From Thermoplasmata archaeon (GTDB lineage Archaea; Thermoplasmatota; Thermoplasmata; Lutacidiplasmatales; UBA184), in the NCBI GenBank assembly GCA_035625165.1, contig DASPQC010000003.1:2101-66100 (forward strand): a stretch of DNA of 64,000 bases, read 5' to 3'. The notes under the pieces are model-generated. The model was not told the origin of the DNA, did no database searches, and saw only the letters and a program-made list of their open reading frames with translations. This document shows, one piece after another, positions 33,281 to 63,927 of this stretch (within the stretch, counting starts at the first letter, position 1; each line of letters opens with the position of its first letter). The position numbers were made by a program, and so were the translations under genes.

Positions 33281-34378
33281 ATGCGCGGTCTTGCCGGCCG
33301 TCCCGTGCAGCAAGAGAAGGCCCGCGGCTTTAGGGGTTTCGTCCAGACGGCCGCTGGCCGGGCGTTCCTGATCGCGCTGTCCCTCGTTCTGGTGTTCGCG
33401 ACGTTCACTTACGTCACTCCGCTGCTCGCGATCCCGGTCTTCCTGATCGTCGGTCTCGCGCTACCGATCTACTCCGGCCTCAAGCGCCCTCGATTCCTCG
33501 CCCTCTCTGGACTGGTCGTCATCCTGCTGCTGGCTCCGGTCGCGACCGCGGTCCTGAGCAGCGAGATCATGAGCCCGACCCCGGCCGCCAGCTCGAGCCC
33601 GGATCTTCCCGAGGGACACGGAGGGGCCGTGTTGCAGAACGCGTCCGTCGGCCCCTTCCTCGGCTCGACCTCGACCAACTTCACCTGGAACGTGACGATC
33701 TATCCCCAGTACCTCTCGCCGGACAACTCGTCGCCGCTCTGGCTCAGCCTCTACATCAGCACCTGTCCGGGCGCCACGGGTAACAGTTCACCCGTGTGCA
33801 GTGCGGGCTATCCGTTCTACAACCGCACGATCACCTTCCCCTCGGGGTACTGGGCCAATCACACCGGCCCGACGCGGGAGAGCTTCCGCTTCACGATCGG
33901 TTCGAATGGAATCTGGGATTGGCAGATGGGCCTCGCGATGGAGAACCTGTCCACCCACGGCCTCGAGTGGATTTTCCTCGTGGGGGACCCGCAATACGAC
34001 GGAATCGAAGGGCCCGTAATCGGCGGGTATGGCACCGTCTACTTCGCGCTCATCGGGTCAGTCTACCTTGAGTCGGCGCTCTACCTCGGCGCGCCCTACT
34101 TCATCGTCCTCCTCATCTACGTGGCGTTCAAGAACCGCGAGCGCCGACGGGCCGACAGCCAGCGGCGGCGGGCGGGGCCGGTGCCGCCGACCTCTCCGCC
34201 TCCCGCCGGGCCCAAGACCCCGCTACCGTCCGGCCCCCCGCCCGAATCGTCGGCGGCGGCCACCGCGGCCGCGGCGGCGGCCGCGGGAGAGATGACGTGC
34301 CCGAACTGCCACGCGGTGGTCTATGCGAACGAGGCCACCTGCTGGAAGTGCGGAACCGCGCTGAACCCCAAGGGCTGA
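33281..34378 (+). CDS. Membrane glycoprotein with cytoplasmic Pro/Ala-rich linker and C-terminal zinc ribbon
   Basis: N-terminal TM spans, extracellular part with NAS, NFT, NVT, NSS, NRT, NHT, NLS sequons, then a TM. The tail is RRRADSQRRR, Pro/Ala-rich, and ends in CPNCHAVVYANEATCWKCG. In-frame GTG 33305 fits the TAATTA box at 33272-33277 better than ATG 33281. Confidence 0.7.
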   Translation: MRGLAGRPVQQEKARGFRGFVQTAAGRAFLIALSLVLVFATFTYVTPLLAIPVFLIVGLALPIYSGLKRPRFLALSGLVVILLLAPVATAVLSSEIMSPTPAASSSPDLPEGHGGAVLQNASVGPFLGSTSTNFTWNVTIYPQYLSPDNSSPLWLSLYISTCPGATGNSSPVCSAGYPFYNRTITFPSGYWANHTGPTRESFRFTIGSNGIWDWQMGLAMENLSTHGLEWIFLVGDPQYDGIEGPVIGGYGTVYFALIGSVYLESALYLGAPYFIVLLIYVAFKNRERRRADSQRRRAGPVPPTSPPPAGPKTPLPSGPPPESSAAATAAAAAAAGEMTCPNCHAVVYANEATCWKCGTALNPKG

Positions 34379-34486: not shown

Positions 34487-36079
34487 CTAGTGCACGACGA
34501 TCGAGTACCCATCCCAGATGAGCGCCACCACGGTCCCGCTGGACGTGACCGTGAGGACGTCGATCATCGTGTACGTCCCCGCGACCGTGGGAACCCACCG
34601 GGTCTTCGACCCGACCGGGTCGACCACGACAGAAGAACCGGAGTTCACCGTCGTGGCACCGACCGAGTAGCTGTACGACTTACCGCTCGAGTTTGCGTAG
34701 ACCATCCCCGAGAAGGAGAGCGAGGCCGGCGCGCCGGTGCCTGTCCAGTTGTCCCAGACCGTGATGTTGAGGTACGGGCAGTACGGGGAGGCGGTCGCCG
34801 AGCACCCGCCCACGCCACCGCTGTGGGTGAAGGTGGTCGTGGGGACCGTGTAGACCTCGGTCTGGACCAGGTTGGCCGTCTTGAAGAGGGTTGAGCCCGA
34901 CGCGCTCCCGACCCCGGTGACGGTTGCCGAGGCCGTGACCAGAATGGTCGAGTTGAGGATCCATCCACTGTACGTGAGCGGGGTGGCGCTGTAGATCGTG
35001 ACAGACGATGGCCCCGTGATAGTGTACCCCGTCGCGCCGGCGAGGCTGACCGATTGCGGCTTCCACGGGCCGCCCACGGTCTGATTCACCCAGAAGGTGG
35101 CGGTCACCGGTTCGCCCGCGAGTGACCCGAGATAGGTCACGACCGCCGCAAAGTACCCGCTCGTGCCGGGGAGCACGGGGGGCTGCGGGATCATGACCAG
35201 GGAAACGGAAAGGACGGCGCCCGTCGTCAGCTTGTTCGCGATAGTGATCGTGACCTGGGCCGTCGTGTTCTGACCGGCGCCTCCCGCGGTAATGAACCCG
35301 TAGAACGTGCCCGACGTGTTGGTCGCACTGGCCGGGACCGTGTAGGTCCAGAGACCCTGAGCGTTCAGCGACATCGATTGAGAGACTGCAGAAAGGCCTG
35401 GAACCCCGCCCAGGTTCACGTAGACCGAGCCCGCCGTCACGGTGCCCGTGATCACGGCCCAGACTTGGAAGGTCGCTCCGAGGTAGGGCGACGCCGGGTT
35501 GGTGCCCGTCTGGGTAATGGTCGGTCCGACGGAGATAGCTAGACCGGGCAGGATCACACTGAAGTAGAGCTGGGTCGGCGAGACGATGAAGACCGTGATG
35601 TTGTCGGGGAGCGTCGGTTGCTGGTGGATCGGGAAGTAGTAGATCCATGTCTGCCCGAGATTCCAGGAACTCGCGTTGTTGATCCCCCAGGCCACGGGGA
35701 TCGGGGTTTGGAACTCCGGGGCGGTCGGGTTGCGTGCGGACTTGAAGTAGACCAGCAGGTTTCCGCCAGCGCCGGGGAGCGATGGCCCGGTCAGATGGAG
35801 GATCGAGATCCCCTTCAGTGAGGTCCCGTTCGAGGTCTTGATCAGGGCGGCTTGGAAGGAGTTCGAGTTCTGGGGAGGAGGGGATGGGAAGGTCGTCACC
35901 CATGCAAAGATCGAAGCGAACAAGGTTACCGTGAGGGCGAGGAGGATGATCGTCGCGACCACATCGGAAACTCCTCGCTGACGCGAGCGGAACCGGAGCG
36001 GGGCAAGTCGTCCCCTTGGGGTGTTCGAAAAGAGGAAGCCCGCGGCAGGGCGATGGCGGTTGACGCGCATATCGCCCAT
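34487..36079 (-). CDS. Large (530 aa) archaeal type-IV-pilin-like surface protein (class III signal peptide)
   Basis: ...RSRQRG|VSDVVATIILLALTVTLFASIFAWV is a basic leader, G/V cleavage context and hydrophobic helix (archaeal pilin/flagellin N-terminal type). The remainder is Thr/Ser/Gly/Val-rich beta sequence with many sequons (NGT, NAS, NIT, NTS, NTT, NQT, NST, NWT, NSS). Confidence 0.75.
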   Translation of the reverse strand: MGDMRVNRHRPAAGFLFSNTPRGRLAPLRFRSRQRGVSDVVATIILLALTVTLFASIFAWVTTFPSPPPQNSNSFQAALIKTSNGTSLKGISILHLTGPSLPGAGGNLLVYFKSARNPTAPEFQTPIPVAWGINNASSWNLGQTWIYYFPIHQQPTLPDNITVFIVSPTQLYFSVILPGLAISVGPTITQTGTNPASPYLGATFQVWAVITGTVTAGSVYVNLGGVPGLSAVSQSMSLNAQGLWTYTVPASATNTSGTFYGFITAGGAGQNTTAQVTITIANKLTTGAVLSVSLVMIPQPPVLPGTSGYFAAVVTYLGSLAGEPVTATFWVNQTVGGPWKPQSVSLAGATGYTITGPSSVTIYSATPLTYSGWILNSTILVTASATVTGVGSASGSTLFKTANLVQTEVYTVPTTTFTHSGGVGGCSATASPYCPYLNITVWDNWTGTGAPASLSFSGMVYANSSGKSYSYSVGATTVNSGSSVVVDPVGSKTRWVPTVAGTYTMIDVLTVTSSGTVVALIWDGYSIVVH

Positions 36080-36267: not shown

Positions 36268-36885
36268 CTACGGGAGGCTGGCGGGCGCAGTGTTGCCCGA
36301 GTAGGACCCCGTGCCGATCGCGATGAGCGAATAGCCGAGACCCGTGGTGGCCGTGGTCGTCCCCATGTCCACGATGACGTTGAACACGTTCGTGAGGGGA
36401 GTGGCCGACGTGTAGGTTCCCGTCGTGGTGCAGACCGCGCTCATCACCAGGGCCGTGGTCGCCGCGATGGCCGAGTAGCAGGCCGGAGTGCCTCCCGCGA
36501 GCGGCTCAACGGCGAACCCGCCCGCGTTCGCGCCGGTCGACACGACACCGCCCGCGGCTGTCTTGACCTCAAACAACACACTGCCGAGCGAGACCGTTGA
36601 AGTCTCGACCGTCAGGGTGTAGATGAAGTCGCCCTGCGTGCAGCCCTTGGTAGCGACAGTTCCACCGGCTCCGACGGAACACGTGGAACTAACCGCAGCT
36701 CCCATGCTGAACGCCGACCCGATCGGTGTGGACCCGGGTCCGTGCGTCAGCCCAGAGATCAGCACGTAGAGCACAGCGGCCAGCACGACCGTAATCGCGA
36801 CCAGTAGAATCGTCGCGATGATCGGCGATACCCCGCGCTTCCGCGCTTTTCTCCAGCTTCGCTCTCGCTTGCCGAATACGTTCAT
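36268..36885 (-). CDS. Archaeal type-IV pilin-like protein (class III signal peptide), 205 aa
   Basis: MNVFGKRERSWRKARKRG|VSPIIATILLVAITVVLAAVLYVLISGL is a canonical archaeal prepilin N-terminus. The C-terminal globular part is Thr/Gly/Ala-rich and contains cysteines. Confidence 0.8.
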   Translation of the reverse strand: MNVFGKRERSWRKARKRGVSPIIATILLVAITVVLAAVLYVLISGLTHGPGSTPIGSAFSMGAAVSSTCSVGAGGTVATKGCTQGDFIYTLTVETSTVSLGSVLFEVKTAAGGVVSTGANAGGFAVEPLAGGTPACYSAIAATTALVMSAVCTTTGTYTSATPLTNVFNVIVDMGTTTATTGLGYSLIAIGTGSYSGNTAPASLP

Positions 36886-37459: not shown

Positions 37460-37987
37460 GTGAAACTAACATCCCTTTGCTCGACTGTGTTCGACAACGC
37501 TCCGAAAGGGAAACCGGACCGCGCTCGCGAGCCGGAGGTACCTCGGGAGACCGCCGAGGACGCGCGCATCGCCCTACGGTGCAACCGCAAGGAGCTCCAG
37601 CTGGTCGACTCGTTCGTGGCAAGCGGCGAGTTCACGACCCGCTCCGAGCTCATGCGGGCGGCGCTGCATGCGTTCCTGCAGTCCCGGGCGCTGTCGACGG
37701 CCCCCACTCCCCCTGTGGACGCCGAGGGCTTCATCGAGGTCCCCGTGCGCCTGCGACCGGAGGAGTACGCCGACCTCGAGGCCTACGCCCGGTTGGTCGC
37801 GAACGGCCGGAAGGCGAGCGACGTGCTCGCCGAGTTCGTCCGCCGCGGCGAGATCGAGCTCAAGGCCCGGGAGCTCGCGCAGCGTGCGCGGGCCTCCGTC
37901 CGCGAGGCGGTCGAGACCCGCACCCAGGTCGGCGAGCTCGTCCAAAGCGGCAAGGAGCTGGAGCGGAAAGGGGTCGTCGGGCGGTAG
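37460..37987 (+). CDS. Ribbon-helix-helix (CopG/Arc/MetJ-type) DNA-binding protein with a second RHH-like repeat and C-terminal coiled coil
   Basis: RHH-1 is ARIALRCNRKELQLVDSFVASGEFTTRSELMRAALHAFL. A second similar unit is IEVPVRLRPEEYADLEAYARLVANGRKASDVLAEFVRRG. The charged heptad-like tail is IELKARELAQRARASVREAVETRTQVGELVQSGKELERKG. Start is uncertain (37460 or 37487). Confidence 0.7.
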   Translation: MKLTSLCSTVFDNAPKGKPDRAREPEVPRETAEDARIALRCNRKELQLVDSFVASGEFTTRSELMRAALHAFLQSRALSTAPTPPVDAEGFIEVPVRLRPEEYADLEAYARLVANGRKASDVLAEFVRRGEIELKARELAQRARASVREAVETRTQVGELVQSGKELERKGVVGR

Positions 37988-38020: not shown

Positions 38021-38941
38021 GTGGGGACCTACGAGGCCGAGCGCGCGAACGGAGAACGACCAGTAACGCAGTCGAACGGCGGACCCAGAGAGGACGCGTG
38101 GCCCGCCCACCTGCGGCTGGGCCAGGAGGTCCGGGTCGTCCTCGCGGCCGTCGGGGGCGGAGCCATCCGCATCGGCGCGGAGATCGCGCGCCGTCACATT
38201 CGTCACCTGGAAACGGTCGCCATCAACTGCGACCCGAAGGTCCAGTCCTACGAGGAGTTCGACCGGAGGGTGTACCTAGGCCCTGATACCGGCACCGAAG
38301 GAGATACCGGCGGCTCTCCCGTCGTCGGGGGTACTCTCGCCGGAGCGGCCGAGCCAGCCCTCGAGCGAATCTTCCGCGGCGCGACCTTCGTGATCCTCGT
38401 GGGAAGCCTCGGCGGAGGCGCGGGCAGCGGCGCCCTCCCGTACATCCTCGAGGTGGCGAGCCGGAATGCCGAGGTCGTGAGCGTCTTCGTGGTGAAGCCG
38501 TTCCGATGCGAGGGCGACCGACGTGCGCTCGCGGACCGGGCCATCGGCCGACTGCATCTGATTTCGGCCTTCGTCGAGAAGCGGGAGCGCGGGCGGGCGA
38601 CCTTCCAGACGCTCGACAACGAGAGCCTGGTCGCGACCCAGGCCCACCTTGCCTTCTCGCGGGTGACGGCCCACTGGGCCCACGTCATCGAGACCCACAT
38701 CCAGCGGTCCTACCTGGACCCGGCCGAAGCGATGATCGAGGCTGCGCATGCGGCAGAGATTTCAATGCTCGCGGAGGCGACGGTCACGGAGCCCCCGGCC
38801 GTCTTTGCCCCGCCCGAATCCCCGCTCCCCGCCCCACCCGTCCCTCTGCCCCCCTTGGTTCCGGCCGCCCCAGCGACGGGGGCCGAAGTGGAGCTGACCT
38901 TCGAGGTCGTGCCCGAGGCCCGGTCCCCCTCTGCGTCCTAA
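38021..38941 (+). CDS. FtsZ/tubulin-superfamily GTPase, N-terminal domain only, with Pro-rich tail
   Basis: It aligns by eye to the FtsZ N-domain. Matches are VVLAAVGGGAIRIG (G1/T1), ETVAINCD (cf. VAINTD), FVILVGSLGGGAGSGALP (T4 GGGTGSG signature) and VVKPFRCEGDRR (cf. PFxFEGxxR). Further matches are LDNESL (cf. IPNDxL), LAF... (H7) and YLDPAEAM (cf. T7 NVDFADV). About 75 Pro/Ala-rich residues then end in AEVELTFEVVPE, and no FtsZ C-terminal domain is present. Confidence 0.8.
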   Translation: MGTYEAERANGERPVTQSNGGPREDAWPAHLRLGQEVRVVLAAVGGGAIRIGAEIARRHIRHLETVAINCDPKVQSYEEFDRRVYLGPDTGTEGDTGGSPVVGGTLAGAAEPALERIFRGATFVILVGSLGGGAGSGALPYILEVASRNAEVVSVFVVKPFRCEGDRRALADRAIGRLHLISAFVEKRERGRATFQTLDNESLVATQAHLAFSRVTAHWAHVIETHIQRSYLDPAEAMIEAAHAAEISMLAEATVTEPPAVFAPPESPLPAPPVPLPPLVPAAPATGAEVELTFEVVPEARSPSAS

Positions 38942-39005: not shown

Positions 39006-39188
39006 TTGCGTCCAAGGGCGATGAACGGTCGGCTCGCGACGGTCCTCTTGACGCTCGTGCTGCCGGCCGCCCTCATCGGAGTGACGATCTACCGATTCGC
39101 GTCAAACCCAATCGCGATCCTCGTCCTGGTCGCGGTCATGGTTGGCGGCAGCTTCTACCTCTTGACCTACCAAGAGACGTTCGCGTAG
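39006..39188 (+). CDS. Hypothetical 60-aa two-TM membrane protein
   Basis: Two hydrophobic helices (LATVLLTLVLPAALIGVTIY and IAILVLVAVMVGGSFYLL). Co-directional, 64 nt after the FtsZ-like gene. Confidence 0.4.
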   Translation: MRPRAMNGRLATVLLTLVLPAALIGVTIYRFASNPIAILVLVAVMVGGSFYLLTYQETFA

Positions 39189-39232: not shown

Positions 39233-40057
39233 TCAGCGGTACATTTCGCCGACCGGAGTGGTGGGGGTCTCCGGGTGCGCCTGCCGGTGGGCCTTCAGGG
39301 CGGCGCGGAGGGCCTTCTCGATCTCCTCCGCCTGCGCGCGCAGGGGGCCGGTGTCGATCTTAATCTCGGGGAGCAGACGGTCGAGGGTTTCGATCAGCGC
39401 CGCGGCTGCCCGATGGTCGGGTAGTCCCTCGGCGAGCCGTGTGCTCACCAGCAGGACCGCGACCGGGATTGTCCGGCCGATCCCCTGCACCAGGAGGGAG
39501 CCGGACACCCCCCCGATCACGCCGTCCTCGAGCGCCCGCGCGCGGGTCGGCTCAAAGGCCTTGAGCACGCCCGCATCCCGCCGGGAGTAGGCGACCCATA
39601 CCTGCTCGGGGGCCGCGTCGGTCCGGGCCTCGGCCGTGGGCTCGGCCGAGCCTTCCGCACCACCGCCCTCCGACTCCTCTTCCTCGGTGATGGGGTGGGG
39701 TACGACTCCTTCGAGCCCGACGATCAGGCGGACCTTCCGGCGCTCGGCATTGTCCAGGATCGTCTTCGCGATCGCGTTCGCTTGGGCCGGGGAAGGAGGG
39801 AACTCCGAGATCACCAGTCCCACGTTTCCGCGCCCGTAGACCCGGACCGCCGGGTGGACGATGCCACCCTGAATGACCGCGATCGGGGAGAGGTCGGGGG
39901 ACTCGAACCGGCCGACGCGCGGGAGCGTGAGCGAGCGCACCATGTAGTGCCCGGCGACAATCGATGCGAGGCCTGCGCTCGGGAACGCCGTGATCATCAC
40001 GGACCCGGGGCTGGGACCCACGCTGGACGGACCTTCCTCGCGCCAGACGAACTCCAT
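39233..40057 (-). CDS. PAC2-family proteasome assembly chaperone (PbaA/PbaB-like)
   Basis: VMITAFPSAGLASIVAGHYMV... and LIVGLEGV match the PAC2 core. The C-terminus ...GEMYR is an HbYX motif (M-Y-R). Start set at ATG 40057, and the 645-aa track ORF is upstream read-through. Confidence 0.75.
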   Translation of the reverse strand: MEFVWREEGPSSVGPSPGSVMITAFPSAGLASIVAGHYMVRSLTLPRVGRFESPDLSPIAVIQGGIVHPAVRVYGRGNVGLVISEFPPSPAQANAIAKTILDNAERRKVRLIVGLEGVVPHPITEEEESEGGGAEGSAEPTAEARTDAAPEQVWVAYSRRDAGVLKAFEPTRARALEDGVIGGVSGSLLVQGIGRTIPVAVLLVSTRLAEGLPDHRAAAALIETLDRLLPEIKIDTGPLRAQAEEIEKALRAALKAHRQAHPETPTTPVGEMYR

Positions 40058-40174
40058 TGGTGGCCACCGCGGGACCGATGACGCTGCTCCTAAAGAGCGT
40101 CGGGGTTCACTCGCCGCGCTCCGGCGGCCTCGCGCGACGCCAAACCCAAGTACTCTTCCCCGCTCCTCGGCGAC

Positions 40175-41209
40175 GTGGGGCTCCCACTCAAGGACCTCGT
40201 GACGGCACAGGAGCTGCCGTGGGAGGCGCTCGCGGGTCGCACGCTCGCGGTCGACGGGTACAACGCCGCCTATCAGTTCCTCGCGACCATCCGACAGCGG
40301 GACGGCCAGCTGTTCTCCGACCCGGACGGGCGAGTGACGAGCCACCTTATGGGCGTCTTCTACCGGACGACGGCCCTCCTGAGGGAGGGAGTACTGCCGG
40401 TCTGGGTCTTCGATGGGCGACCGCCGGAGCGGAAGGCCGGCACCATCCGTGCCCGAATCGCCGCCAAGGAACGGGCGGAAGGGGAGTGGCAGGCGGCACT
40501 GGCCGTGGGGGACCTCGAGACCGCCCGGCGCAAGGCCGCGCAGACCTCCCGCCTCACGCGCGAGATGGTCGAGGAGCTCAAGGAGCTGCTCGGGGCACTC
40601 GGTGTGCCGGCGCTTCAGGCCCCCGGGGAAGGGGAGGCCCAGGCCGCCCAGATGGCCGCGCGGGGAGCGGTCTGGGCGAGCGCGTCGGAGGACTACGACA
40701 GCCTTCTGTTCGGCGCTCCTCGCCTCGTTCGCGGACTGGCGGCTCGCGGCCGCGCGGGCACGAGCCCCGGGGCCCAGCTGGTCGTGCGAGAGGACCTGCT
40801 CGCGACTCTCGGCATCGACGGGGAGGAACTCATCCTCCTCGGCATCATCGTCGGCACGGACTTCAACGACGGCGTGCGAGGGTACGGTCCGAAGAAGGCG
40901 TTGAAGCTCGTGAAGGACCACCTGGGATTCGAGGCGACCGTGAAGAAGGTCGGCCTCGACCTCGCCGAGTCGACCGAGGTCGCGGAGATCTTCCGTCATC
41001 CCAGCGCCGCCGAGATGCCGGCGCCATCGTTCGGGCCGGTGGACGAGGCGAAGGTGCTGAAGGTCCTCGTGGAAGGACACGGGTTCGCGGAGGCTCGGGT
41101 CCGGGCGGCGATCGCCCGGGCCCGGCAGCGTCCCTCCTCCGGCGCGACGCCGGCCGAGACCCGCGGACACCAGACCCTTCTCGAGACGTTCGGAGGTTCC
41201 CCTCCATGA
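40175..41209 (+). CDS. fen: Flap endonuclease 1
   Basis: LAVDGYNAAYQFL, VWVFDGRPPERK, GEGEAQAAQMA, EDYDSLLFGAP, GTDFN. C-terminal PIP-like tail QTLLETF. Confidence 0.92.
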   Translation: MGLPLKDLVTAQELPWEALAGRTLAVDGYNAAYQFLATIRQRDGQLFSDPDGRVTSHLMGVFYRTTALLREGVLPVWVFDGRPPERKAGTIRARIAAKERAEGEWQAALAVGDLETARRKAAQTSRLTREMVEELKELLGALGVPALQAPGEGEAQAAQMAARGAVWASASEDYDSLLFGAPRLVRGLAARGRAGTSPGAQLVVREDLLATLGIDGEELILLGIIVGTDFNDGVRGYGPKKALKLVKDHLGFEATVKKVGLDLAESTEVAEIFRHPSAAEMPAPSFGPVDEAKVLKVLVEGHGFAEARVRAAIARARQRPSSGATPAETRGHQTLLETFGGSPP

Positions 41210-42681
41210 CTCGGTTCGAGTGTGTCCCCAATTTCTCGGAGGGACGAGACGAGACGAAGATCGGACGGATCACCGCGGCCGCGCGAGAGGTTCCGGGCGT
41301 GACCGTCCTGGACGCGGAACGGAACGCCGACCACAATCGCTGCGTCATCAGCCTGGTAGGGGAGGGCGATGCGCTCCTCGAGGCCGTGGTCCGCATGATG
41401 AAGGTCGCGACCGCGACCATCGACCTCACTCACCACCAGGGGGAGCATCCCCGCATGGGGGCGACCGACGTCGTCCCCTTCGTCCCCCTCGGCGAATCGA
41501 CCATGGCGGACGCGGTGAAGCTCGCCGAACGGCTCGGCGAGCGGGTCGCTCGCGAACTCGAGATCCCCGTCTACCTCTACGGCCGAGCGGCCCGTCGACC
41601 CGAACGGACGGACCTCGCGAAGGTGCGTGAGGGGCAGTTCGAGGGAATCCGTGCGTCCATCGCGACCGACCCTGCGCGGGCCCCCGACTTCGGCCCCTCC
41701 CGAGTTCACCCGACCGCCGGGGCGGTCGCGATCGGGGCTCGGCCCGTCCTCATCGCCTACAACGCCTACCTTACCACCCCGGACGTCGCGGTCGCGAAAC
41801 GGATCGCCAAGGCCGTGCGCGCCCGCGACGGGGGGCTTCCCGAGGTGAAGGCGCTGGGCTTCGAGATCCGCGAGCGCAACCGGGCCCAGGTGTCGATGAA
41901 CCTGACCGACTACCGCATTACCCCCGTCCATCGCGCGTTCGAGGCGGTTAGGCTCGAGGCGGCGCGGTACGGCGTCGACATCGAGGAGTCCGAGGTGGTG
42001 GGCCTCATTCCCGAGGACGCGCTGTTCGATGCTTCCGAGTACTACCTTCGGCTCCACGGCTTTGACCGCGCCAACGTGCTCGAGCGGAAGGTCCGCGCGG
42101 TAGACACCTCGGGCCCCGGTCACGAGTCGATCGCGTCGTTCGCTGCCCGGCTCGCGGCCCGAACTCCGACCCCGGGCGGCGGGAGCGCGGCGGCCCTGGT
42201 CGCCGCCCTCGCCTGCGCCCTCGGGGAGATGGTCCTCGCCTACTCGATCGACCCGGCGAAACCGTCGGAAGAGCTTCGCGCCCTCTCCGAGCGACTGACG
42301 GTCGCGCGGACCCGGTTCCTCGACCGGATGGACGAAGACGCGCGCTCCTACGACGCCGTCCGCAGTGCGCGCCGGGCGCGCAAGGAACACCCGGACGACC
42401 CGGCGGCGAAGGCGACGGTCCTCGCCGCGATCCGAGGCGCGGCGGAGGTGCCGCTCGGCACCGCGCGCGACGCCGTCGAGCTCGCGAAGCAGCTCGCGAG
42501 CGTGCGAGAGCACACCAAGGCGGCGCTCGGGAGCGACCTCGTCACCTCGCTGGCGATGTTCCGGGCGGCGGCCGAAGGGGCGCTCGCCAACGTTTCGATC
42601 AACCTCGACGACCTCAGGGCGGCGGGCGAACCGACCGCGGAGATGGAGGCGGAGGTCGCGCGGCTCCGGCCGACGGAGTGA
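41206..42681 (+). CDS. Glutamate formimidoyltransferase fused to formiminotetrahydrofolate cyclodeaminase domain
   Basis: MTRFECVPNFSEGRD...NRCVISLVGE...HPRMGATDVVPF is the FT domain. The C-terminal TPGGGSAAALVAALACALGEMV is cyclodeaminase-type. ATGA overlap with the fen stop. Confidence 0.88.
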   Translation: MTRFECVPNFSEGRDETKIGRITAAAREVPGVTVLDAERNADHNRCVISLVGEGDALLEAVVRMMKVATATIDLTHHQGEHPRMGATDVVPFVPLGESTMADAVKLAERLGERVARELEIPVYLYGRAARRPERTDLAKVREGQFEGIRASIATDPARAPDFGPSRVHPTAGAVAIGARPVLIAYNAYLTTPDVAVAKRIAKAVRARDGGLPEVKALGFEIRERNRAQVSMNLTDYRITPVHRAFEAVRLEAARYGVDIEESEVVGLIPEDALFDASEYYLRLHGFDRANVLERKVRAVDTSGPGHESIASFAARLAARTPTPGGGSAAALVAALACALGEMVLAYSIDPAKPSEELRALSERLTVARTRFLDRMDEDARSYDAVRSARRARKEHPDDPAAKATVLAAIRGAAEVPLGTARDAVELAKQLASVREHTKAALGSDLVTSLAMFRAAAEGALANVSINLDDLRAAGEPTAEMEAEVARLRPTE

Positions 42682-61216: not shown

Positions 61217-62821
61217 ATGGCGCTCGCGTCGTTCGTCGGGCCATGGGTCCCCGAGCTCATCCTCCTCGGGGCCGCCCTCCTCATCTTCCTCTTCGATGTG
61301 GTCGGGGTGCGTCGGCTCGAGGCGGTGGGCGCGGTCGCCGTCGGCGGGACGGCGCTCGCGCTGCTGTTCGTGGTCGCCGACCTGGGGTTCGCGCCGATCG
61401 CTGGCCTCGCGACCGTCCCCGCGGGACAGGTCGACCCGGCCCCTGCGCTCCGCACGGCCTCTCTCTACACCTTCACCTCGCTCGGCCTCGTCTTCCAGGC
61501 GATCTTCCTCCTCGCCGCGTTGCTGGTCTCGGTCGCCTCGTTGAGCCGACCGAGCCGAGAGAAGGGCGCTCCGATCTTCTTCGGGCTCCTCTCGCTCGCG
61601 ACCCTCGGCATGCTCTTGGTCGCGGTCGCCTCCGACCTCATCTTCCTCCTCCTGTCGATCGAGGTCACCAGCATCTCGACCTACCTCCTGGTCGCCTATT
61701 CGCGCCGGGACGCCCGCTCGCTCGAGGCGGCGATGAAGTTCTACATCATCGGCGCCCTCTCGACCACCCTCTCGTTCTTCGGGGCTTCCCTGCTCTTCGG
61801 CGCCTACGGGACGACCAACCTCTACCTCATCCACTCGCAGGCGGCCGCCGGGACGACGATCGCCGGCGGACCGGTCCTCGTCCTCCTCGGCTACGCCTTC
61901 TTGATCGCCGGGCTCGCGTTCAAGGCGACCCTCGTGCCGTTCCACGCCTGGGCGGTGGACGTCTACGACGGCGCGCCGACCGACGTCACCGCCTTCCTCG
62001 CGGGCGCTTCGAAGAAGGTCGGCATCTTCGCCTTCTTCCTCGTCCTCATCGGCCCGGTCCTCGTCGTCACGTCGACCGGGTGGTCGCCGTTCGCCGGCGG
62101 CTCGGCCGCCCTGGGGCCGGTGGTGCAGATCGTCCTCGCCGTGGTCGCGGTCCTCACGATGACGGTGGGCAACGTGCTCGCGCTCCTCCAGAAGGAGATG
62201 AAGCGGATGCTCGCCTACTCCTCGATCAGCCAGGCCGGCTACATGCTGATCGGGATCACGGTCGGCACGGCGCCGGCGATCGCGGGTGCGACGCTCCAGG
62301 TCTTCGCCCACGTGTTCATGAAGGGCGGCGCGTTCCTCGTGGTCGCGGGGGTCGCCGGCCTCGGCGTCGGCCCCCTCATCGACGACTGGCGGGGGCTCGG
62401 CGCGCGGCGGCCGCTCCTCGGTACGGCCTTCGGCCTGATGCTGCTCTCGCTCGCCGGCGTGCCGTTCACGATCGGGTTCTGGTCGAAGTTCATCCTGTTC
62501 AGCTCGGCCGTCCAAGCCCAGGGCTACTTCGTCTGGCTCGCGGTGGCGGGGCTGCTCAACAGCGCCCTCTCGGTATTCTACTACGCCCGCGTCCTCAAGG
62601 TGATGTTCTTCGACACCCCGCCCGCCCCGGCCCCTCTACCGGCGGGCGCGGTGGTCGGCGGTTCGGAGCCGCCGGTCCTGGGGGCCGGCGGGTTCGGCTG
62701 GGGCCGGGCCGTCGCGGTCGGGATCGCCGCGGTGGCGATCGTGGCGCTCGGGGTCTACCCCCAGCCGATCTTCGGCGCCGTCCAGACGGCGGCCCAGCAC
62801 TTCGTGGCGACCGGGGCGTAA
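61217..62821 (+). CDS. nuoN: Complex I-like subunit N (antiporter-like)
   Basis: FKATLVPFHAWAVDVYDGAPT, AYSSISQAGYML. 534 aa. Confidence 0.9.
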   Translation: MALASFVGPWVPELILLGAALLIFLFDVVGVRRLEAVGAVAVGGTALALLFVVADLGFAPIAGLATVPAGQVDPAPALRTASLYTFTSLGLVFQAIFLLAALLVSVASLSRPSREKGAPIFFGLLSLATLGMLLVAVASDLIFLLLSIEVTSISTYLLVAYSRRDARSLEAAMKFYIIGALSTTLSFFGASLLFGAYGTTNLYLIHSQAAAGTTIAGGPVLVLLGYAFLIAGLAFKATLVPFHAWAVDVYDGAPTDVTAFLAGASKKVGIFAFFLVLIGPVLVVTSTGWSPFAGGSAALGPVVQIVLAVVAVLTMTVGNVLALLQKEMKRMLAYSSISQAGYMLIGITVGTAPAIAGATLQVFAHVFMKGGAFLVVAGVAGLGVGPLIDDWRGLGARRPLLGTAFGLMLLSLAGVPFTIGFWSKFILFSSAVQAQGYFVWLAVAGLLNSALSVFYYARVLKVMFFDTPPAPAPLPAGAVVGGSEPPVLGAGGFGWGRAVAVGIAAVAIVALGVYPQPIFGAVQTAAQHFVATGA

Positions 62822-62826
62822 GGCCC

Positions 62827-63927
62827 ATGGAACGGTTCGACGTCGTCGTCGTCGGGGCGGGACCCGCCGGGTCGCTCGCGGCCCGCGCCGCCGCTCAGGG
62901 CGGGGCCCGTACCCTGCTCCTCGACCATCGCGAGGAGCTCGGTCACCCGGTCCAGTGCGGGGAGTTCGTCCCCGCCCCGCGCGAGCTCATCGACCTCTTC
63001 GGTTGCCCGGAGCTGGTCGCGGCCGCCTACGAGATCCCGCCGGAAACCGTCCTCCGCGAGACCCGGTACATGACGTGCATCTCCCCCTACGGACACCGGT
63101 TCCGGTTCCCCCTCGCCGGTGCGACCGTCTCCCGCCGGGCGTTCGACAAGGCCCTTGCCATCGAGGCCGAGGGGGCCGGTGCCCAGCTCCGGTACCCCGT
63201 GGGGGTCACCGGCGTCTTCGACGACGAGGTCCGGCTCGCCGACCGGACGAGCATCCGGGCCGAAGTCGTGGTCGGGGCGGACGGCCCGATCTCGACGGTC
63301 GGCCGATCGGTCGGCTTCCGACCGGCGCGCGTCCTGTTCCGCATGATCACGGCGACCGTGGATGGTCCGCTGGACGAGGACATCGACGTCTATTTCGGTC
63401 GGACGGCCCACCACGGCTACGCGTGGCGGTTCCCGAGGGCCCACGACGCGAACGTCGGGCTGGGCGTCCAGCGGCTCCGGCCGGGGGAGACGCTGGGGGG
63501 ACTGCTCCACCGGTTCCTCGAGCGGACGGGGCTCGGACCGTCCCGCGCCCCGACCACGTGGTGGGTCCCGATCGGCCCCCCGCCGGAGAGCCTCGTCTTC
63601 GGCCGCGCGCTCCTCGCCGGGGACGCCGCGAACCTGGTGATGGCGACCAACGGCGGCGGGATCCCGACGGCGATGCTGAGCGGCTGGCTCGCCGGAGGGG
63701 CCGCCGCCCGCCACGTCCGCGAGGGGCGACCGCTCTCGGACTACGACCCGGCCTGGCGGGCTGCGCTCCACCATCCGCTCGACCGGGCCGCCCGGCTACA
63801 ACGGTTCGCCGACCGGATCAGCGGGAACGACCCCCTCTTGGCGCTGGGTATGCGATATATCGGGGTGTCGGGTCTCGACGCGATGATGCGGCTGCGTTGG
63901 CCCGCCCGGCTGGGGAGGAACTCGTGA
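62827..63927 (+). CDS. Geranylgeranyl reductase family flavoprotein (second copy), directly after nuoN
   Basis: VVVVGAGPAGS, HPVQCGEFVP, LLAGDAANLVMATNGGGI. ATG lies 5 nt after the nuoN stop. Its own stop overlaps a following GTG (63924). Confidence 0.85.
   Translation: MERFDVVVVGAGPAGSLAARAAAQGGARTLLLDHREELGHPVQCGEFVPAPRELIDLFGCPELVAAAYEIPPETVLRETRYMTCISPYGHRFRFPLAGATVSRRAFDKALAIEAEGAGAQLRYPVGVTGVFDDEVRLADRTSIRAEVVVGADGPISTVGRSVGFRPARVLFRMITATVDGPLDEDIDVYFGRTAHHGYAWRFPRAHDANVGLGVQRLRPGETLGGLLHRFLERTGLGPSRAPTTWWVPIGPPPESLVFGRALLAGDAANLVMATNGGGIPTAMLSGWLAGGAAARHVREGRPLSDYDPAWRAALHHPLDRAARLQRFADRISGNDPLLALGMRYIGVSGLDAMMRLRWPARLGRNS

Follow-up and report, generated by a model that had tools for sequence, protein, structure and literature searches.

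A stretch of 64,000 nucleotides (nt) from a Thermoplasmata archaeon (UBA184, Lutacidiplasmatales; assembly GCA_035625165.1, contig DASPQC010000003.1, positions 2,101 to 66,100 of the forward strand), which we call the window, contains at 38021-38941 (+) a gene that starts with GTG and encodes an FtsZ-like protein of 306 amino acids (aa), followed by a stop codon. We consider it reasonably probable that this gene is a Lutacidiplasmatales ftsZ2 devoid of the C-terminal domain, situated in a three-gene module, and that its non-canonical product acts as a putative GTP-binding cap or switch. The identity as a C-domain-less FtsZ2 is for the most part established by the data presented here, while the working mode is what we infer from them. 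Both halves of the protein are regarded as necessary for FtsZ to function, the N-domain binding GTP, and the T7 loop and C-domain activating hydrolysis and forming the lower face of the polymer. To our knowledge, the two halves have so far been separated only experimentally. Here, nature appears to have kept the N-terminal half alone, under strong purifying selection, at the ftsZ2 locus of an abundant order of soil archaea.

The resemblance of the protein to FtsZ is well above chance. It matched the Pfam Tubulin family (PF00091) with an E value of 3e-12 and 47.6 bits (cut-off 33) and about 50 FtsZ chains of the PDB with E values from 1e-12 to 2e-8, PhuZ being reached only at E 0.04. Alignment with hhalign against 20 canonical FtsZ gave a probability of 99.6% and an E value of 7e-25 over aa 34-212, and the top matches of the Foldseek search against the PDB were all FtsZ (probability 1.0, about 195 aligned columns, rmsd 2.7-3.0 A). 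The protein is a genuine member of the FtsZ/tubulin superfamily, as had been claimed in a preliminary description of this DNA made from its letters. NCBI holds the identical protein (P0001) under the name 'hypothetical protein [Thermoplasmata archaeon]', and the annotation of the family is split, NCBI using 'hypothetical' and JGI 'cell division protein FtsZ'. A six-frame regular-expression search detected no second tubulin signature in the window.

All the motif strings listed in the preliminary description were located in the 306-aa protein, namely GGGAIRIG (aa 45-52), VAINCD (aa 66-71), GGGAGSG (aa 131-137), KPFRCEGDRR (aa 159-168), LDNESL (aa 198-203), LAF (aa 210-212) and YLDPAE (aa 231-236). 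The nucleotide-binding loops, which it had described as kept, are indeed present in order and aligned to FtsZ by hhalign: T1 GGG (aa 45-47), T2 NCD (aa 69-71), T3 DTGGSP (aa 95-100), T4 SLGGGAGSGA (aa 129-138), T5 PFRCEG (aa 160-165) and T6 LDNESL (aa 198-203). Compared with FtsZ, an insert of about 10 aa is found at aa ~181-190.

The AlphaFold2 model, computed with an alignment of 120 sequences (predicted local distance difference test, pLDDT, 79.8; predicted template modelling score 0.73), exhibited a complete FtsZ N-domain with six strands and helices H1-H6, mostly at pLDDT >90, then a single helix, aa 212-255, and finally a region without structure, aa 256-306 (pLDDT 48-59). The N-domain itself, the FtsZ-type nucleotide-binding domain, covers aa 31-211 (S1-S6, H1-H6; 38111-38653, +) according to hhalign, AlphaFold and Foldseek. 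It is preceded by an N-terminal tail, aa 1-30 (38021-38110, +), which has a YEAER-like start, is otherwise poorly conserved and is predicted to be disordered (pLDDT <50). The long helix that follows in the AlphaFold model (38654-38785, +) comprises the H7 equivalent, aa 212-233, and a poorly conserved extension to aa ~255. After it come a disordered Pro/Ala-rich linker, aa 256-287 (38786-38881, +), variable in sequence and length, and a conserved C-terminal peptide, A-E-V-E-L-T-F-E-V-V, aa 288-297 (38882-38911, +), in which E291, F294 and E295 are invariant. The peptide AEVELTFEVVPE corresponds to aa 288-299, after the Pro/Ala-rich stretch of aa ~256-287.

The globular C-terminal beta-domain of FtsZ is absent, in agreement with the preliminary description: the FtsZ_C family (PF12327) had no match (Pfam, E<=10) either in the protein or in the four overlapping open reading frames (ORFs) at 38.25-39.42 kb, and the region after aa 255 is disordered in the AlphaFold model. 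The ORFs in the other frames at 38.25-39.42 kb matched no Pfam family at all at E<=10, so that no FtsZ C-terminal domain was found downstream in another frame, and the Pro-rich region, being unstructured in AlphaFold2, does not fold into the missing domain. In the same way, the canonical ftsZ model TIGR00065 was matched with E 4e-18 and 65.8 bits against a cut-off of 295.2, over aa 37-178 only, corresponding to model positions 18-160, compared to 333.5 bits for a full-length Thermoplasmata FtsZ (P0349). Nor does the protein present the two-domain fold of CetZ or tubulin, since a second domain is lacking and the closest matches, in structure as in sequence, are to FtsZ.

A homologue search of 5.8 billion proteins gave at least 424 homologues. 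The best 120, which we examined, are 60-74% identical over the entire length and measure 302-323 aa except for one of 285 aa; their Pfam annotation is PF00091 alone, and those bearing a name are 'Thermoplasmata archaeon'. In a scan of GTDB species representatives, a relative was found in 123 species, of which the 80 listed are nearly all metagenome-assembled genomes of soil or peat Thermoplasmata, including UBA184 and Ca. Lutacidiplasma silvani; these host names point to the order Lutacidiplasmatales (PMC9287336). When a profile was searched exhaustively against 1.84 billion cluster representatives, about 20 scored below 1e-30 (several of them fragments), followed by a fall to the generic FtsZ level of 1e-15, which shows, at the level of sequence searches, that the FtsZ-like family is compact. 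No full-length orthologue was found within the lineage, where the orthologues share the short length.

The gene is therefore a real one, under selection and widely conserved in the order. The reading as a pseudogene (frameshifted or truncated) or as an artefact of assembly has the unusual length as the sole point in its favour and retains practically no probability, given that the same length and frame recur, across many assemblies made independently, in over 120 clusters and 123 species, that the C-terminal peptide is invariant beyond a variable linker, and that the alternative frames contain no FtsZ_C.

Conservation, expressed as the mean frequency of the commonest residue per column in the 120 sequences, is 0.56 for aa 1-30, 0.90 for the N-domain, 0.77 for aa 212-233, 0.53 for aa 234-255 and 0.51 for the linker (aa 256-287), and rises to 0.81 in the C-terminal peptide, with 0.9-1.0 at its core positions and the consensus E(V/A)ELTFE(V/I). 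E295 is invariant across distant members. A variable linker followed, in frame, by an invariant peptide indicates that the reading frame is used to its end, and the layout of linker plus C-terminal peptide pointed out in the preliminary description is borne out as a variable disordered linker ahead of a near-invariant E(V/A)ELTFE(V/I). The alternation of acidic and hydrophobic residues in this peptide suggests a beta-strand docking motif. It is not the GID-type motif G[IL]D[ED][VI]G found at the C-terminus of canonical Thermoplasmata FtsZ, which is the SepF-binding tail of archaeal FtsZ (PMC8178401).

The assignment to FtsZ2 comes mainly from the genomic context. In archaea, a gene of the ribbon-helix-helix (RHH)/ParD/CdrS type typically accompanies ftsZ2 and not ftsZ1 (PMC7439475, PMC8178401, PMC9871819), and such a CdrS/ParD-like gene is found upstream of the FtsZ-like gene at 37460-37987 (+), its stop codon being 33 nt 5' of the FtsZ-like start. 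The 175-aa product (Pfam RHH_1, E 0.003, aa 36-73) is made of two tandem RHH repeats and a C-terminal helical extension of ~50 aa; its best NCBIfam match is NF058555, the haloarchaeal 'transcriptional regulator CdrS' (E 2.3e-5, below cut-off), and the next is ParD. Downstream, at 39021-39188 (+), a 55-aa gene encodes a protein predicted to have two transmembrane (TM) helices; it has a conserved SNP turn, ends in YLL(S/T)Y.E and matches nothing in Pfam, NCBIfam or PADLOC. Of 83 related loci, 82 have the RHH gene on one side of the FtsZ-like gene and the 2-TM gene on the other, ~0.9-1.1 kb downstream (tblastn). The trio is also kept beside members only 34-41% identical (L084, L086 and L106), where the 2-TM homologues have 56 aa, and at L086 it is present even though the wider neighbourhood differs. 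We rejected membership of a defence system, as none of the three module proteins has a PADLOC match.

Full-length Thermoplasmatota FtsZ (Tubulin plus FtsZ_C, 336-384 aa) lie directly after an RHH gene of 104-106 aa at four loci, from Ca. Natronoplasma (L091), two other Thermoplasmata lineages (L093, L094) and a high-GC soil lineage (L096). Their RHH proteins align with that of the window over both repeats, with a BLAST E value of 2e-6 for repeat 1, and NDK is encoded just upstream at both L091 and L086. Additionally, an Asp precedes the T6 Asn both in this family (DNE in 143 of 148 sequences) and in the RHH-linked full-length FtsZ (DNN in 116 of 117), as it does in most of the short FtsZ forms of Methanomassiliicoccales described below; representatives whose C-terminal peptide is of the bacterial type most often have Pro at this position (7 of 16). 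The RHH partner, the synteny, the T6 'DN' and an RHH-FtsZ fusion point to the positional orthologue of ftsZ2 minus its C-domain. That fusion, P0162 (461 aa, from a Logan contig), joins an N-terminal RHH to a full-length FtsZ with T6 'FDNN'; in the manner of a Rosetta stone, it suggests that the CdrS-like regulator and FtsZ2 act together physically.

The RHH partner differs in length with the form of FtsZ next to it: it measures 104-106 aa where FtsZ is full length, whereas beside the C-domain-less forms it has an additional C-terminal helix and measures 120-175 aa. The window gene (37460-37987) was compared for this purpose with the tandem-RHH loci L088 (5506-5868), L095 (4539-4958), L091 (3622-3942), L093 (3607-3921), L094 (3580-3897) and L096 (4680-4997). 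Such tracking suggests co-evolution, in few independent lineages. It is also what gives substance to a non-cytoskeletal GTP switch linked to transcription, in which the short FtsZ would bind the RHH extension and modulate DNA binding by the regulator, or would use the 2-TM protein to anchor DNA at the membrane. In favour of such a switch, the longer RHH partners are precisely those beside the short FtsZ, the gene order is close (33-nt gap), the fusion P0162 exists, and adaptor-NTPase pairs such as ParR-ParM and TubR-TubZ offer an analogy. Nevertheless, the length correlation comes from few independent lineages, and haloarchaeal CdrS is a transcription factor of ftsZ2 and not a known binding partner of the protein (PMC7439475), so that we hold this explanation to be clearly unlikely.

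Returning to the C-domain-less FtsZ2, its nucleotide pocket is largely that of FtsZ. T1, T2, T3, T5 (PFRCEG..RR) and T6 align residue by residue with FtsZ (hhalign), and with loops T1-T6 intact the binding of GTP or GDP is likely; GTP would thus probably be bound by the N-domain. The residues kept in full-length members down to 33% identity are G45, G46, E64, G131, G132, G135, P160, F161, E164, R167, R168, L198, D199, N200, E236 and E295. T4, GGGAGSG, departs from the GGGTG[ST]G signature by the replacement of Thr by Ala at A134, invariant in the 120 close members. This is the same substitution as in E. coli FtsZ T108A (GGGTGTG to GGGAGTG), which is GTPase-dead and still makes static rings with GTP (bioRxiv 10.1101/079533). 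In a subclade formed by P0125, P0131 and P0136 (loci L084/L085 for the P0131 type), T4 is degenerate (TLGGRSGTG, SLGGEAGTE and SLGGETGSS), and E236 and the C-terminal peptide are still retained.

The preliminary description had also read YLDPAE as a T7-like segment, and this reading was not confirmed. The family consensus at the T7 position is ...HIERSFLAPxEA..., the D233 of the window being Ala in most members; profile-profile alignments to canonical FtsZ stop at aa 212-229; the NxDxxD motif is absent; and the segment is part of the continuous helix aa 212-255 in the AlphaFold model, being helical in both the Lutacidiplasmatales family and the Methanomassiliicoccales short form. Only P234 and E236 (nt 38720-38728, +), at the position where T7 would start, are invariant, also in the members furthest from this protein, and for E236 this covers members of 33-48% identity. 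When the family is aligned to the Methanomassiliicoccales short form, the match extends to aa 235 and places E236, by transitivity and as weak evidence, near the first Asp of the FtsZ2 motif NLDFAD. What is present is a conserved acidic residue at the lower end of H7, with no T7 loop demonstrated.

These residues are central to the idea, raised in the preliminary description, of a minimal self-polymerising tubulin, for which the N-domain, H7 and the Pro-x-Glu would suffice for assembly and GTP hydrolysis, with E236 entering the pocket of the next subunit. P234 and E236, at the C-terminal end of the H7 equivalent, are invariant even at 33% identity, E236 lies near the first Asp of NLDFAD by the transitive alignment, and loops T1-T6 are conserved. 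The evidence on the other side is the absence of NxDxxD, the lack of conservation of D233, the failure of profile alignments to reach the T7 segment with confidence, the helix that AlphaFold predicts in place of a loop, here as in the short form of Methanomassiliicoccales, and the loss of the C-domain, source of much of the bottom interface. Polymerisation and GTP hydrolysis in the manner of FtsZ are structurally doubtful, since the missing domain contributes most of the bottom polymerisation face and since the invariant T4 replacement equals the GTPase-dead T108A. We therefore give this minimal tubulin only a small chance.

For the C-domain-less FtsZ2 we propose the following model. During evolution, an ftsZ2 would have lost its globular C-terminal domain, which is GTPase-activating and forms the bottom face, and kept the N-domain, an H7 ending in Pro-x-Glu, a disordered linker and a new conserved C-terminal docking peptide. 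The N-domain, with loops T1-T6 intact, would bind GTP, and the protein would not form head-to-tail filaments of the FtsZ type by itself, as most of the lower polymerisation face is missing, while its T108A-like T4 would make a pocket that is GTPase-dead yet assembly-competent. In FtsZ filaments the C-terminal globular face is the plus end and the N-terminal face the minus end, and the capper MciZ acts at the plus end (PMC11938149); incoming subunits should consequently dock via their N-terminal nucleotide face. The nucleotide (top) face of the short protein could then dock once at the plus end of a canonical FtsZ filament, where T7 is exposed, and block growth without turnover, the outcome being a stable cap or anchor. 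Alternatively, the short protein could be a GTP-dependent switch. The C-terminal peptide would tether the protein to a partner, for which the 2-TM micro-protein, the extended RHH protein and a SepF-like anchor are candidates.

Several points weigh against this account. The capping model presupposes a canonical FtsZ in the same cells and would fail without one. Searches with the high-GC archaeal FtsZ P0247 returned only FtsZ2-type proteins of other Thermoplasmata lineages, from loci that had a GC content of 50-55% where checked, and the published FtsZ/SepF survey (Supplementary Data 1 of PMC8178401) covers no Lutacidiplasmatales genome. The degenerate T4 of the distant members may mean that nucleotide binding is dispensable for the conserved function, and P234/E236, invariant where H7 ends, could serve as a working T7 substitute, permitting self-assembly. 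Synteny extends over the whole region throughout the order, which makes the conservation of the module partly a matter of shared ancestry, and only L086 breaks the wider synteny. The proposed FtsZ2 origin relies on synteny, on the RHH partner and on a single signature residue, not on a tree, and the hhalign scores of the family (Thermoplasmata FtsZ2, 144; bacterial FtsZ, 161; Methanomassiliicoccales short form, 168) do not on their own favour FtsZ2 over bacterial FtsZ.

The similarity of these scores speaks for an independent, fast-evolving FtsZ-like paralogue that is not derived from FtsZ2 and lies by chance beside an RHH gene. So does the T6 motif DNE, which we take to be tubulin/CetZ-like. 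A candidate source is the deep-branching 'FtsZ-like' clade between FtsZ2 and CetZ, reported to include Thermoplasmata sequences (PMC9723716). Such an origin seems very improbable to us, as the RHH partner is homologous to, and has the same tandem architecture as, that upstream of full-length FtsZ2-type genes, and as the Methanomassiliicoccales short form, with the same predicted architecture, is FtsZ2-like.

Short forms occur in parallel in other lineages. In Methanomassiliicoccales, short FtsZ of 257-310 aa with PF00091 only are found in at least 120 clusters, some on Mb-scale contigs, and this form also follows a tandem-RHH gene. Its hhalign scores, 463 against FtsZ2 and 327 against bacterial FtsZ, make it clearly FtsZ2-like at the level of profiles. 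In the AlphaFold prediction it consists of an N-domain, a 41-residue helix, a short helix and a disordered tail. A third short group (P0152/P0159, 296-303 aa) likewise has a tandem-RHH gene ahead of it, here of 139 aa, at a locus with a GC content of 48%. The TIGR00065 scores are graded, with 333 bits for full-length FtsZ, 229 for the Methanomassiliicoccales form (up to model position 229), 95 for the P0159 type and 66 for this family. According to a table in PMC8178401, Methanomassiliicoccaceae have 3-6 FtsZ-family proteins and SepF, while Methanomethylophilaceae have no FtsZ and no SepF; the genomes with zero FtsZ and zero SepF in that survey are those of Ca. Methanomethylophilus alvus and another Methanomethylophilaceae. 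In the literature, we found no paper on C-domain-less FtsZ in Methanomassiliicoccales.

A broader and tentative proposal, possible but in our view rather unlikely, is that C-domain-less FtsZ2 derivatives with an extended RHH protein (plus the 2-TM protein in Lutacidiplasmatales) replaced canonical FtsZ2 across Thermoplasmatota orders as a non-polymerising, GTP-locked cap or switch for division or membrane remodelling, and that in some 'FtsZ-poor' lineages they might be the sole FtsZ2-type protein or even the sole tubulin homologue.

If the C-domain-less FtsZ2 works as we propose, an FtsZ2-type protein would be reducible to a nucleotide-binding module and a tethering peptide, which would point to a part in archaeal division as a cap, an anchor or a switch. 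It would offer a natural 'top-face-only' FtsZ for dissecting filament polarity, and cultured strains exist for Methanomassiliicoccus. An annotation gap is also exposed, the same kind of protein being 'hypothetical' or 'FtsZ' depending on the database.

Concerning the surroundings of the module, the other neighbours are PAC2 (39233-40060, -), FEN1, a formiminotransferase-cyclodeaminase (FTCD) and archaeal pilin-like genes, all syntenic across the order and functionally unrelated. The type IV pilin-like genes (Pilin_N) occupy 34487-36079 (-) and 36268-36885 (-), immediately upstream of the module, and their proteins reach 1,698-1,795 aa in relatives (L084 1818-6914; L106 1-5081). A 365-aa protein encoded at 33281-34378 (+), with a weak C-terminal zinc-ribbon match, is syntenic in 52 of 83 related loci. 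A promoter and terminator scan of 37.0-39.6 kb found nothing with a sigma-70-type model, which is unsuited to archaea, and Rfam detected no RNA family in the window. ARAGORN called a tRNA-Ser(cga) at 63261-63353 (+), inside a geranylgeranyl-reductase-family FAD gene (62839-63927, +); Rfam showed no tRNA there at its gathering threshold, and the call is probably a false positive. With ~69% GC, the window also contains very long ORFs at 39233-41170 (-), 40057-42681 (+) and 61243-63927 (+), which are open-frame artefacts; the real genes at these places are PAC2 (39233-40060, -), FEN1 (40175-41209), FTCD (41200-42681), nuoN (61217-62821) and the reductase (62839-63927). At another locus (L092, 2011-7645), a full-length FtsZ, P0157 (Tubulin plus FtsZ_C, 321 aa), stands among SLATT_1, TIR_2 and TIR genes, a setting that looks like a conflict or defence island and not a division locus.

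In the literature we found no description of a C-domain-less FtsZ2 lineage, of its RHH/2-TM module or of the conserved peptide, and FtsZ is not mentioned in PMC9287336, on Lutacidiplasmatales, or in PMC12220078. Among known systems, archaeal FtsZ2 (cdrS/parD-ftsZ2) shares with this family the FtsZ N-domain, a CdrS-like RHH gene upstream, the T6 'DN', a linker with C-terminal peptide, and homologous tandem-RHH partners in Thermoplasmatota. In contrast, the family has no FtsZ_C, no NxDxxD and no GID-type tail, carries the Thr to Ala change in T4, and scores 66 bits with TIGR00065 compared to the 295-bit cut-off. The short FtsZ of Methanomassiliicoccales, which is the best hhalign partner of the family, likewise combines an N-domain, a long helix and a disordered tail without FtsZ_C, downstream of a tandem-RHH gene. 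It differs in being nearer to canonical FtsZ2 (229 bits), with T4 GGGTGTG, an identity of only ~25% to this family, some tails that are still GID-like and end in ...LG, and no 2-TM gene downstream.

The FtsZl1 and FtsZl2 proteins (Makarova & Koonin 2010, PMC2875224) likewise have a divergent N-domain of the FtsZ kind and no recognisable canonical C-terminal domain. FtsZl1 has ~1000 aa, a long coiled coil, an alpha-helical C-domain and vWA, OmpA and GTPase neighbours; we rejected membership of this family, which does not fit a 306-aa protein with a disordered tail and RHH, 2-TM, PAC2 and FEN1 neighbours. FtsZl2 is proteobacterial, with T1-T7 present and an alpha/beta C-region of ~300 aa, and was rejected in view of the archaeal host and the lack of an extra structured region.

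Engineered FtsZ cappers (PMC11938149) follow the same logic as the one proposed here, in that an intact nucleotide face combined with a defective or absent bottom face makes a plus-end capper. These cappers and E. coli T108A are laboratory mutants of full-length FtsZ, while capping by a natural short protein is something that we infer. Finally, the truncated FtsZ of Hyphomicrobiales (A. tumefaciens FtsZ1; bioRxiv 10.1101/2025.09.29.679267) share with this family a natural truncation under selection and have been proposed to tune division and not to build the ring. Their loss is the opposite one: the Hyphomicrobiales forms keep the whole GTPase core and drop the linker and C-terminal peptide, whereas the Lutacidiplasmatales family has lost the globular C-domain and kept the linker and the peptide.

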